Source of the DNA: an uncultured Sphingobacterium sp. | GTDB lineage: Bacteria; Bacteroidota; Bacteroidia; Chitinophagales; Chitinophagaceae | Length of the DNA: 64,000 nucleotides | Direction: 5' to 3' | Assembly (NCBI GenBank): GCA_964441425.1 | Contig: CAYTXC010000006.1 | Location: 49,727-113,726 of the forward strand | In this document: positions 8,273-18,200 of the stretch, in pieces | Numbering within the stretch: position 1 is the stretch's first letter | How the letters are laid out: every line of letters starts with the position of its first letter | Notes under the pieces: model-generated | What the model saw: only the letters and a program-made list of their open reading frames with translations | Database searches by the model: none | What the model was told of the DNA's origin: nothing | Made by a program: the position numbers and the translations under genes

Positions 8273-8390
8273 TTTGCACTTAGCGCCCAGCAATATCATA
8301 ACGATACCCAGTTTCAATAAAATCATCCCACACCGGAATGTATGATAATCAATCACGCTGATTAGTGACCTGGCATTTTAAGTATGCCAC

Positions 8391-8714: not shown

Positions 8715-10307
<1,593 letters not shown>

Positions 10308-14739: not shown

Positions 14740-16518
14740 ATGGACAAATTCATTGTTTCCGCCCGTAAATATCGACCACAAAATTTTTCAACTGTAGTGG
14801 GACAGTCGCATATTACCACCACGTTAAAAAATGCCATTCGAAATAAGCAACTGGCACATGCATTCTTATTTTGTGGGCCACGTGGGGTAGGTAAAACAAC
14901 TTGTGCAAGAATTTTGGCCAAAACGATTAACTGCATGAACCTCGATGCTGAGGGTGAAGCCTGCAATGAATGTACATCGTGCATATCGTTCAATAATGGA
15001 TCATCATTGAATATTCACGAGCTGGATGCTGCCAGCAACAACTCAGTAGATGATATCCGAAACCTGGTTGATCAGGTCCGATTTGCACCTCAGGCTGGCG
15101 AATATAAAGTGTATATCATCGATGAGGTTCATATGTTGAGTTCTTCTGCGTTCAATGCATTTTTGAAAACCCTGGAAGAGCCTCCTGCCTATGCAAAATT
15201 TATTTTAGCTACCACTGAAAAGCATAAAATTCTTCCAACTATACTTTCTCGTTGTCAAATTTTTGATTTTAAGCGAATAACCAATCAAGATACCGTTGAT
15301 CATCTTCAGGAGATCTGTAATAAAGAAGGAATAAAAGCTGAAAAATCTGCCCTACATGTCATCGCTCAAAAAAGTGAAGGCTGTATGCGTGATTCATTAA
15401 GTATAATGGACAAGATCGCCAGCTTTACCAATAATCAACTGACCTATACAAATACCTTAGAGCATCTAAATATTCTAGATGAAGATTATTTTTTCCGACT
15501 TCTCGAAAATATGCAACAACAAAAACTGGCAGAAGCACTGCTCGTTTTTGAAGACATCAACAGAAAGGGATTTGAAGGAGAAATGGTATTAAATGGGTTT
15601 GCAGAGTTTATCAGAAATATTTTAGTTTGCCGAGATACCAAAACGGTATCATTACTGGAAGCAGTTGAGGGATTCAGAGAAAAATATCAGGAAGCTGCAA
15701 AAACAATTTCACTTTCTTGGTTAGTATCTGCCTTGCAAATTTTAAATGAAGCGGAGATTAATTATAAACAAGCAAGAAATCGTCGTTTACACGTAGAGCT
15801 TTGCTTTATAAAATTGACTTATCTACATCAGGCCATCGAAGTTGCTCAGGATGGTGCTAAAAAAAAAATGGATAGTGTAAAACCTGTCGCATTCAGAAAA
15901 ATCGGGTTTGTAGAGGAAAAATCAGGAGCGGTATCAGCACCTACTGCTTCATCAACAACCGCTGCTCCAAAATTGACCATTAAAGAAACTAAAGAGGAAA
16001 AGCAAACTGCTCCTAATTCAGTATCGCCGAATCAGACTAAACCTGTAAGCTTACCCCCTCAGCCTAAATTTGGAAATCTTCAAAAAATAAGAGATCAGAT
16101 TTCCCGTAAACCACAGGTTGAACAGAACCAGATACCCTTAACTCAGGAAAAACTTCAGCAGGCCTGGGAACTATATGTCGATAAATTATTGAAGGCCAAT
16201 AATCCATCAGCTGCAACGAATTTCAGATTAGCTGTTCTTAAGATCCTGGATGATCAAAACTTTGATATCATAACCGAGGGAAATATCCAGCAAAAATTTA
16301 TAGAATCAGAAAGAGGAGGATTGATCGAACATTTGCAAACCTTCTTCAACAATAAAAATCTCAAGTACCATTTGATCTTGGAAGAAAATGAAGAAACTAA
16401 AGATAAAACCCCTAAAGACCGTCCAATTCCACCAAGGGAACAATATCAAAAAATGGTAGAAATGTACCCTCTTATAAAGGATTTGAGGGATCGGTTAGGT
16501 ATGGATCTAGACTATTAA
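14740..16518 (+). CDS. dnaX: DNA polymerase III subunit gamma/tau
   Basis: ARKYRP, GPRGVGKTT, DEVHML, SRC motif. Low-complexity linker after about residue 375 and a C-terminal domain; A10 run at 15859-15868. Confidence 0.97.
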   Translation: MDKFIVSARKYRPQNFSTVVGQSHITTTLKNAIRNKQLAHAFLFCGPRGVGKTTCARILAKTINCMNLDAEGEACNECTSCISFNNGSSLNIHELDAASNNSVDDIRNLVDQVRFAPQAGEYKVYIIDEVHMLSSSAFNAFLKTLEEPPAYAKFILATTEKHKILPTILSRCQIFDFKRITNQDTVDHLQEICNKEGIKAEKSALHVIAQKSEGCMRDSLSIMDKIASFTNNQLTYTNTLEHLNILDEDYFFRLLENMQQQKLAEALLVFEDINRKGFEGEMVLNGFAEFIRNILVCRDTKTVSLLEAVEGFREKYQEAAKTISLSWLVSALQILNEAEINYKQARNRRLHVELCFIKLTYLHQAIEVAQDGAKKKMDSVKPVAFRKIGFVEEKSGAVSAPTASSTTAAPKLTIKETKEEKQTAPNSVSPNQTKPVSLPPQPKFGNLQKIRDQISRKPQVEQNQIPLTQEKLQQAWELYVDKLLKANNPSAATNFRLAVLKILDDQNFDIITEGNIQQKFIESERGGLIEHLQTFFNNKNLKYHLILEENEETKDKTPKDRPIPPREQYQKMVEMYPLIKDLRDRLGMDLDY

Positions 16519-16613: not shown

Positions 16614-18200
16614 ATGGCAGAAGTGATCAGAATGCCGCTTTTGAGCGATACCATGACGGAAGGAAAGATCGTCAAATGGAATAAAAAAGTTGGGGATAGT
16701 GTTAAAAGTGACGACGTCCTTGCAGATGTTGAGACCGATAAGGCCACCATGGAAGTAGTTGGTTATGTAGATGGTACTTTACTCTATATTGGTGTGGAAG
16801 AAGGCAAAGCTGCCAAGGTTAATGATGTCATCGCCATTATTGGTAAACCTGGTGAAGAGTTTAATTCTCTTCTGAATAGCGAGCCAAAAGCTGATGTAGC
16901 TGCAGCTCCCATTGCACCTGCGCCTGCTGCATCTTCTGCTCCAACCGTTACACCTGAAGAATTAGGCGTTACAGTTATCCGTATGCCATTATTAAGTGAT
17001 ACGATGACGGAAGGGAAAATCGTTAAATGGAATAAAAAAGTTGGCGATTTTGTTAAAAGCGATGATGCCATTGCGGATGTTGAAACCGATAAAGCGACCA
17101 TGGAAGTGGTTGGATATGTGGAAGGCACATTACTTCATATAGGTGTACCAGAAGGTGAGGCTGCAAAAGTGAATGGGGTGATCGCAATCATTGGTAAAGC
17201 TGGTACGGATATATCAGGGTTACTGGCATCGTTAGACCAGCCTCAATCGGCAGCTCCGGCCAGCACACCTTCAACTGCTCCAGCTGCAAGTTCAACTCCA
17301 ATAACAGCTGCAGCACCAACATTTTCCTCTACTGATGGTAGTCGGGTTAAAGCTTCCCCTCTGGCAAAACGACTGGCTGAAGAAAAGGGTATCAATATCA
17401 ACCAAATTCAGGGTTCTGGAGATGGGGGACGCATCATTAAAAAGGATGTAGATTCTTATCAGCCAGGTACCGCGGTAAGTCAAGTAGCAAACATTCCTGC
17501 ATTTGTACCAAGTGGAGAGGAAGGCTACACGGATACAGAGAACTCATCAATGAGAAAAACGATCGCACGCAGGCTTGGCGAAAGTTTATTTACTGCACCA
17601 CATTTCTATCTCACCATGGAGATCAACATGGATAATGCAATTGGTGTCCGTACTCAACTTAATGAACTCAGTCCGGTGAAAATATCTTTCCAGGATATGA
17701 TGATCAAAGCATGTGCAATGGCTCTACGTCAGCACCCGGCAGTGAATAGTAGCTGGATGGGAGATTTCATCAGAACCTATCATCATGTTCATATCGGCTC
17801 TGCCATAGCATTACCTGATGGCCTGATCGTTCCTGTTATTCGTCACGCCGATCAAAAATCACTTTCTCAGATCGCAGCAGATGCAAAAGAATTGTATGCA
17901 AAAGCACGCGATAAAAAAATACAACCTGCAGATTTCAGTGGAAACACATTCACCATTTCTAATTTAGGCATGATGGAAATTGATGAGTTCACCGCTATCA
18001 TCAATCCGCCAGACAGCTGTATCCTTGCCGTTGGACGGATCAAAGAAGTGGTTGTAAGAAAAGGTGATGGGTTTGGAGTAACCAATGTAATGAAGGTTAC
18101 TTTGAGTTGCGACCATCGAAGTGTTGATGGTGCTGTTGGTGCAGCTTTCCTCCAAACGCTAAAGAAATATATGGAGAACCCAGTGGCTATGCTCATTTGA
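16614..18200 (+). CDS. pdhC: Pyruvate dehydrogenase E2 dihydrolipoamide acetyltransferase with two lipoyl domains
   Basis: Two VETDKATMEV lipoyl motifs, ASPLAKRLA E3-binding domain, DHRSVDGA catalytic motif. Confidence 0.93.
   Translation: MAEVIRMPLLSDTMTEGKIVKWNKKVGDSVKSDDVLADVETDKATMEVVGYVDGTLLYIGVEEGKAAKVNDVIAIIGKPGEEFNSLLNSEPKADVAAAPIAPAPAASSAPTVTPEELGVTVIRMPLLSDTMTEGKIVKWNKKVGDFVKSDDAIADVETDKATMEVVGYVEGTLLHIGVPEGEAAKVNGVIAIIGKAGTDISGLLASLDQPQSAAPASTPSTAPAASSTPITAAAPTFSSTDGSRVKASPLAKRLAEEKGININQIQGSGDGGRIIKKDVDSYQPGTAVSQVANIPAFVPSGEEGYTDTENSSMRKTIARRLGESLFTAPHFYLTMEINMDNAIGVRTQLNELSPVKISFQDMMIKACAMALRQHPAVNSSWMGDFIRTYHHVHIGSAIALPDGLIVPVIRHADQKSLSQIAADAKELYAKARDKKIQPADFSGNTFTISNLGMMEIDEFTAIINPPDSCILAVGRIKEVVVRKGDGFGVTNVMKVTLSCDHRSVDGAVGAAFLQTLKKYMENPVAMLI
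16623..17200 (+). repeat. Intragenic duplication of the lipoyl domain (about 16623-16850 and 16974-17200)
   Basis: VIRMPLLSDTMTEGKIVKWNKKVGD...ETDKATMEVVGYV occurs twice, with many synonymous differences. Confidence 0.9.

Follow-up and report, generated by a model that had tools for sequence, protein, structure and literature searches.

The A10 run in dnaX and its predicted products

How a single dnaX gene, whose uninterrupted reading frame encodes the full-length tau subunit of DNA polymerase III, might also supply a shorter, gamma-like clamp-loader subunit is the question raised by a homopolymer on contig CAYTXC010000006.1 of an uncultured Sphingobacterium sp. The homopolymer lies within a 64,000-nucleotide stretch that was analysed as a whole (hereafter the window), and all dnaX features described for the window lie on its forward (+) strand. 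The open reading frame (ORF) at 14740-16518, taken from the ORF list and classified with NCBIfam and Pfam, encodes in its unshifted frame a protein of 592 aa (67.3 kDa), corresponding to tau. Sequence similarity unambiguously identifies this ORF as dnaX, encoding the DNA polymerase III subunit gamma/tau. Its product scores 701.9 bits against NCBIfam PRK14971 (curated cutoff 685) and 443 bits against TIGR02397 ("dnaX_nterm") over residues 6-359, and it contains the Pfam domains PF13177 (DNA_pol3_delta2, the AAA+ module), PF22608 (the lid) and PF12169 (DNA_pol3_gamma3, domain III). Shortly behind the last of these domains lies a run of ten adenines (A10), which, judging from its sequence and its conservation in orthologues, is probably a programmed site of transcriptional slippage like that in Thermus thermophilus dnaX.

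The coding region of domain III, the last domain common to tau and gamma, occupies 15472-15831 (PF12169, residues 245-364), and the run, the proposed site of RNA polymerase slippage, is located at 15859-15868 (T10 on the template). It thus begins 10 codons past the end of domain III and 63% of the way through the gene, in agreement with the initial annotation, which had placed it where the clamp-loader domains end. The run is preceded by GCT (15856-15858) and followed by TGGATAGTGTAA (15869-15880), and it forms codons 374-376 (KKK) together with the first base of ATG377. Behind the run, frame 0 continues for 216 codons, the -1 frame reads 2 codons before a TAG at 15873-15875, and the +1 frame reads 3 codons before a TAA at 15878-15880. 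One extra A would give KKK-N-G-TAG, a predicted product of 378 aa (42.8 kDa) with the C-terminus ...AKKKNG, and one A fewer would give KKK-W-I-V-TAA, a predicted product of 379 aa (43.0 kDa) with the C-terminus ...KKKWIV. The region at 15881-16518, which according to its translation and a hidden Markov model (HMM) of orthologues encodes a low-complexity linker and the C-terminal domain, is specific to tau and would be missing from the short products. Direct reading of the sequence therefore confirmed the run, both off-frame stops and the 592-aa tau as they had been described for this locus.

In the proposed mechanism, RNA polymerase copying T10 would hold an all-rA:dT hybrid that can realign by one or more bases without creating a mismatch, generating an mRNA pool with A9, A10, A11 and so on. 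Messages with A10 (as well as A7 and A13) would be translated in the ordinary way into tau of 592 ± 1 aa, the computed lengths being 592 aa for A10, 591 aa for A7 and 593 aa for A13. Messages with A11 or A8 would stop at the TAG, which could also be reached after a -1 ribosomal shift, and yield 378 or 377 aa, and those with A9 or A12 would stop at the TAA and yield 379 or 380 aa. The short products (~43 kDa) would represent gamma-like clamp-loader subunits that keep domains I-III and lose the tau-specific C-terminus, which in E. coli binds the polymerase and the helicase. We infer from the sequence that, in this organism, slippage is frequent enough to be useful and the short proteins build up and act as gamma. 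The mechanism itself is not new, having been described before in Thermus and some other bacteria, and the locus is a well-supported but unsurprising new example of it.

Considered alone, the window does not provide overwhelming evidence for such a site. The A10 run is the longest homopolymer in the 64 kb, followed by A8 and T8, and under independent and identically distributed bases 0.37 such runs are expected anywhere in a stretch of this size, indicating that an A10 is not very rare; within 90 nt of the domain boundary, the expectation is ~8e-4. Both off-frame stops are found within 3 codons at 5% of the codon positions in the window dnaX, and the host DNA has a GC content of 40%, at which off-frame stops are common. 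The site stands out beyond chance because it is conserved in orthologues.

The near-identical database matches of the window DnaX derive from freshwater Chitinophagaceae/Sphingobacteriales metagenome-assembled genomes (MAGs), in which the dnaX product is labelled only as full-length "DNA polymerase III subunit gamma/tau", consistent with the claim that annotation overlooks the switch since tau is in frame. A 378-aa database protein (P0054), 100% identical to the N-terminus of the window DnaX, was considered as a deposited gamma and rejected, as it ends in ...KKKMD and is cut by a contig end. This protein is the dnaX fragment of one MAG of the species and ends just past the A10 run; a separate partial protein (P0036) spans the run. 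The contig end right after the run in P0054 possibly results from read heterogeneity at that place.

Conservation of the run and permutation of the tau frame in Bacteroidota

The comparative sample comprised 80 Bacteroidota dnaX loci with 39-62% protein identity, one genome per species, from groups including Chitinophagaceae, Sphingobacteriaceae, Cytophagales, Flavobacteriales and Bacteroidales. The sample was not selected for a Lys run, because the peptide recovering the distant loci must have been a conserved ATPase motif. Of these loci, 64 carry an A9-A13 run where domain III ends, at codons 345-387 and, in one case, at codon 454. With the window included (n = 65 here and below), 56 runs consist of exactly ten adenines, and the others are A9 (five), A11 (two), A12 (one) and A13 (one). 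The run starts in codon phase 0, 1 and 2 in 9, 33 and 23 cases, respectively, and since it occurs in all three phases, the encoded residues differ among loci (KKK, EKKN, QKKN and others).

Each of the 65 runs is followed by one frame that stays open for >120 codons or to the contig end and by two frames that stop within 15 codons. For 78% of the runs, both off-frame stops follow within 5 codons, as they do at 10% of background positions of these genes (binomial p ~1e-38); within 7 codons, the values are 91% for the runs and 17% for the background. The A run and its flanking stops, whose conservation in orthologues had been proposed as a check on the initial annotation, are thus both kept, and the mixed AAA/AAG codons that it had named as counter-evidence are not the case for most orthologues, which retain a pure A run. 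The 64 loci that keep the run, two rapidly stopping frames and one tau frame accordingly lend strong support to the proposal that slippage or frameshifting at the A10 lets this gene yield gamma-length products besides tau.

These comparisons indicate that the nucleotide sequence of the run is itself under selection, irrespective of codon phase and Lys codon usage, because only 67% of the Lys codons outside the run are AAA across the loci, and because L063 carries an A10 although it has 0 AAA and 17 AAG codons outside the run. In addition, the downstream codons have changed in an 85%-identical gene (L081; GCT AAA AAA AAA ATT GAC AGT GTA A), yet its A10 and both off-frame stops remain. Position-specific base conservation around the run revealed nothing beyond the run itself and a stop-rich stretch in the downstream 12 nt.

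The frame that encodes the tau C-terminus is permuted relative to the upstream frame. The long frame is the upstream frame (0) in 49 of the 65 loci, the -1 frame, which needs an extra A, in 13, and the +1 frame, which needs one A fewer, in 3. When the frame-0 loci were used to build an HMM of the tau C-terminus, it matched the shifted frame in all 15 complete shift-requiring loci (E 1e-21 to 1e-43); a sixteenth (L050) is cut by a contig end and, with E 0.021, is unconfirmed. In the shift-requiring loci the essential tau can be reached only via a frame change at the run, and the site must therefore shift frames efficiently. The permutation of frames, together with the stops in both off-frames, thus points to transcriptional slippage rather than E. 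coli-type -1 frameshifting, and Antonov et al. (PMC3711429) treat the need for shifts of this kind in both directions as a criterion for programmed transcriptional realignment. Loci of the two-ORF type are L014, L037, L038, L052, L055-57, L060, L063, L067, L072 and L078. In L040, L054 and L076, tau lies in the +1 frame behind an A10 and requires one A fewer or two more. This +1 arrangement may represent a third, undescribed architecture; the 17 dnaX genes in the 2013 report of Antonov et al. are described as containing -1 frameshifts.

The same data bear on whether the run has any programmed function, or is simply tolerated in a Lys-rich linker with nearby stops supplied by an AT-rich background. 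In favour of the latter, the KKK residues are almost invariant among ~100 distinct Chitinophagaceae DnaX sequences, off-frame stops are common in 40% GC DNA, and some relatives do without the run. However, a 10-nt run is held in all three phases and thereby in different residues, it is pure AAA even where AAG is preferred, and its off-frame stops are far closer than background. Furthermore, 16 species carry the tau C-terminus in a shifted frame, and coding regions generally show selection against A9 runs (PMC1088944). The comparative data thus largely refute an explanation without function, which we regard as very improbable.

Slippage weighed against ribosomal frameshifting and heritable length change

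E. coli-type -1 programmed ribosomal frameshifting, if it were the main route, would use the heptamer A_AAA_AAA at 15861-15867 on the A10 mRNA, reach the TAG at 15873-15875 and produce the 378-aa gamma. The E. coli system concerns the same gene and the same position after domain III, with an A-rich heptamer and a gamma that is cut one or two codons into the -1 frame; it consists of A_AAA_AAG, an upstream Shine-Dalgarno (SD)-like element and a downstream stem-loop. In the window, the heptamer stands in the register of the zero frame and the -1 frame stops after 2 codons; any A10 contains a heptamer of this kind, which is therefore not discriminating. An AGGA at 15848-15851 is located 9 nt before the heptamer, and SD-like 4-mers occur 4-17 nt upstream of the run in 34% of loci versus 13% of control windows, with no conserved position. 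However, Bacteroidota generally make little use of SD pairing. One orthologue (L025) has the classical A_AAA_AAG with a -1 stop in place of the run, which would also fit ribosomal frameshifting.

The downstream element of the E. coli system has no counterpart here. The 62 nt at 15869-15930 fold at -7.0 kcal/mol (z +0.55), revealing no stimulatory structure in the window, and across the 65 loci the 50 nt downstream show no more structure than control windows (p = 0.76). An Rfam scan of 15600-16100 at E <= 10 returned only chance matches to unrelated families and no curated dnaX frameshift element. Unlike the E. coli site, the window heptamer ends in A, and A_AAA_AAA is reported to induce shifting far less readily in E. 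coli than A_AAA_AAG does (PMC5009743). A -1 shift needs only the 7-nt heptamer, yet the length of the run is conserved at 10 nt, approximately one RNA:DNA hybrid. Close stops are also kept in the +1 frame, and three orthologues need a +1 change and 13 a -1 change to reach the essential tau. Because of this conserved length, the stops held in both alternative frames with shifts needed in either direction, and the missing E. coli-type stimulators, the sequence evidence favours transcriptional slippage over ribosomal frameshifting, a preference that goes beyond the initial annotation, which had named the two together. Ribosomal frameshifting is thus unlikely to be the main route.

Transcriptional slippage can be stimulated by nascent-RNA hairpins, and upstream folding shows a weak tendency of this kind at the family level. 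The upstream 40-45 nt of the 65 loci fold at -7.6 kcal/mol, compared with -5.3 kcal/mol in controls from the same genes (p = 3e-5), and the distance from the end of the last upstream stem to the run is at most 3 nt in 65% of loci versus 47% of controls (p = 0.003). In the window, a weak candidate hairpin at 15832-15855 (GGCCAU, a 12-nt loop and AUGGUG; 6 bp including one G-U; -7.4 kcal/mol) ends 3 nt before the run; its folding energy is not significant against shuffled sequences (z = 0.0). By eye, it is not obviously kept in the 85%-identical L081. The family-level folding is reminiscent of hairpin-stimulated transcriptional slippage, and the hairpin of the window is a candidate only.

For the RNA itself, public sequencing runs containing this sequence were available as Logan contigs rather than reads, and the search for such runs was biased towards A10 words. 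Six metatranscriptome contigs of low depth cross the homopolymer, reading A9 (X1), A11 (X9) and A10 (X12, X42, X43 and X44). As an indel control, four RNA sequencing runs were compared over 20 kb of the window, yielding four indel places, two of which are the A9 and the A11 at the homopolymer. Six further RNA sequencing runs gave no contig spanning it, four of them having none on the stretch (X2, X7, X8 and X10) and two having contigs only beside it (X6 and X11). In the orthologue L037, which has a genomic A10 and tau in the -1 frame, two RNA contigs from one RNA sequencing run (depths 4.8 and 14.5) both carry the frame-restoring A11. Collectively, the RNA data are suggestive, agreeing with slippage without being decisive.

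Homopolymers are also classical contingency loci, and replication slippage could in principle give rise to A9 and A11 genome subpopulations by phase variation at the DNA level. Some DNA may be present in the metatranscriptome libraries from which the A9 and A11 contigs derive, which would allow for this origin. However, eight independent metagenome assemblies across the run all read A10 (8/8, depths 6-20), a heritable loss of tau would be lethal because dnaX is essential, and the fixed A10 across species argues against an unstable tract. Phase variation is the least probable of the explanations considered and is hardly credible for this gene.

Several points count against programmed transcriptional slippage as the explanation of the A10. 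The initial annotation had expected A9/A10/A11 heterogeneity in RNA but not in DNA; contigs with A9 and A11 besides A10 were indeed found, but the difference in run length between RNA and DNA is not significant (Fisher p = 0.16). DNA contigs represent a consensus, whereas the RNA contigs are close to single reads, and homopolymer slippage also occurs in reverse transcription, PCR and Illumina sequencing; indels introduced by reverse transcription at slippage-prone motifs are reported in PMC5737552. The RNA contigs of L037 differ from its genome at 2-4 of 57 bases, indicating that they derive from related strains, whose DNA may differ in run length. In addition, -1 ribosomal frameshifting on A_AAA_AAA may make a minor contribution and would lead to the same 378-aa product. 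Judging from the relatives that have shortened or lost it, the run is not indispensable. In L082 and L083 (74-76% identical) it is shortened to A7 with both off-frame stops kept, and L017 (Pontibacter rugosus), one of the 16 loci without a run, likewise has A7 and both stops; the respective contexts are ACA AAA AAA CTG, TCA AAA AAA CTT and TCA AAA AAA GCT. The run is lost in L084 (CAA AGA AAA) and in many Bacteroidales; among the close relatives, the one without it has 63% identity. In lineages with A7 or without a run, the efficiency or the mechanism of the switch may differ.

Known systems, lineages without the run and wider meaning

The closest likeness for slippage at the window A10 is the dnaX gene of T. 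thermophilus. As described in PMC1088944 and PMC5009743 (with Larsen et al. 2000 as described there), this gene is a single tau ORF with an A9 and stops in both off-frames, and its gamma arises from mRNAs with extra bases in numbers other than multiples of three, at a ratio of ~1:1 with tau. The window gene likewise holds tau in a single ORF, with an A run on the sense strand just past the clamp-loader domains and close stops in both non-zero frames. It differs in having A10 instead of A9 and in belonging to a mesophilic, 40% GC member of Bacteroidota. The same sources place the Thermus run "seven-eighths" along the gene, compared with 63%, directly after domain III, in the window. They also present RNA heterogeneity and two proteins as demonstrated for Thermus; for the window, both are predicted from the sequence, and heterogeneity is only hinted at in the RNA.

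Antonov et al. 2013 (PMC3711429, Fig. S3) reported A10-containing dnaX genes in Flavobacterium johnsoniae, F. psychrophilum, Cytophaga hutchinsonii and Capnocytophaga ochracea, and further ones in four Chlorobi (two Chlorobium, Prosthecochloris and Pelodictyon) and in Coraliomargarita. Their two-ORF genes share with the window the A10, its place in the gene and the proposal of transcriptional realignment, and the Bacteroidetes examples come from the same phylum. However, the genomic frame of the two-ORF genes ends just past the run, encoding gamma, and tau needs the shift; the window has the opposite layout, with tau in frame and gamma dependent on the shift. Because breaks in the genomic frame are what GeneTack looks for, the approach of Antonov et al. 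would not flag the arrangement of the window. No description of a Bacteroidota dnaX with tau in frame and gamma produced by slippage was found in the searchable literature. Our sequence comparisons are a modest extension of the 2013 report, indicating that the run is present in ~80% of the sampled Bacteroidota, mostly as an exact A10, and that tau can occupy any of the three frames. In Caulobacter crescentus, ClpXP processing of DnaX also yields a gamma-like form without the tau C-terminus from one gene, but this route is post-translational and requires no slippery sequence, and nothing in the window argues for proteolysis.

Among the lineages without the run, other sequences occur at the end of domain III. 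L025, a Bacteroidota MAG without the A run, carries GGA AAA AAG CCT GAG at codons ~374-378, which contains A_AAA_AAG and is followed by a -1 TGA after the next codon, a sequence that suggests replacement of the slippage run by a ribosomal frameshift site. In three of the sampled loci (L039, L045 and L053) and a metagenomic contig (L087), all dnaX genes of uncultured Bacteroidales, an in-frame TAG lies exactly at the end of domain III, at ~2785-2800 in L039, ~3595-3610 in L045, ~3600-3615 in L053 and at position 8283 of the reverse complement in L087 (minus strand). Its context is invariant, CATAGATTGC(A/T)AGG, and behind it the same frame stays open for 164 to >200 codons, encoding the tau linker and C-terminus; the neighbouring genes of these loci are intact under the standard code (code 11). 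A scan of metagenomes for the motif returned one further true dnaX contig, namely L087, and two chance matches. On the basis of this sequence pattern, the in-frame TAG could be a programmed UAG-readthrough version of the gamma/tau switch, and no report of UAG readthrough in this role was found in the literature searched. In L059, the zero frame of dnaX ends at a TAA at codon ~383 and reading resumes in the +1 frame; the junction (GTGCTAAAAATCC) contains only an A5. This locus is either a pseudogene, a further recoding site or the result of faulty assembly.

A joint reading of these observations can be offered tentatively, as a possibility that we do not rate as probable. A slippage cassette of exactly ten adenines would be the ancestral gamma/tau switch of Bacteroidota, present in ~80% of the sampled species, mostly in the unannotated in-frame form. 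The free permutation of the tau frame (0, -1 and +1) would imply that RNA polymerase slips with sufficient efficiency to provide an essential protein, and an upstream nascent-RNA hairpin may tune it. Lineages without the run may have evolved replacements, such as A_AAA_AAG (L025) or the conserved in-frame UAG (CA-UAG-AUU-GCA-AGG) of some uncultured Bacteroidales; the UAG would then be an undescribed readthrough route to tau and gamma.

For the window itself, transcriptional slippage would add a predicted, unannotated gamma-like clamp-loader subunit to this freshwater organism and, by extension, to most Bacteroidota that hold tau in frame. The principle was already established by Thermus dnaX and by the A10-containing two-ORF genes that Antonov et al. 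reported in 2013. A homopolymer of fixed length, kept across a phylum amid a shuffled layout of frames, offers a natural series for asking why cells make both tau and gamma and which ratio of the two they tolerate. There is also a practical warning, namely that "frameshifts" linked to an A10 in Bacteroidota dnaX assemblies should not be taken for pseudogenes or sequencing errors.

Two further features of the window were encountered in the RNA contigs. High RNA depth at 9335-10001 was considered as a possible RNA element and rejected, since this region belongs to a conserved ATP synthase beta gene and the depth probably results from cross-mapping. The gene downstream of dnaX (16614-18200) codes for a dihydrolipoamide acyltransferase whose two tandem lipoyl domains are near-identical, and RNA contigs there contain "joints" that skip 70-394 nt between the lipoyl repeats, most likely reflecting collapse of the repeat during assembly rather than splicing.

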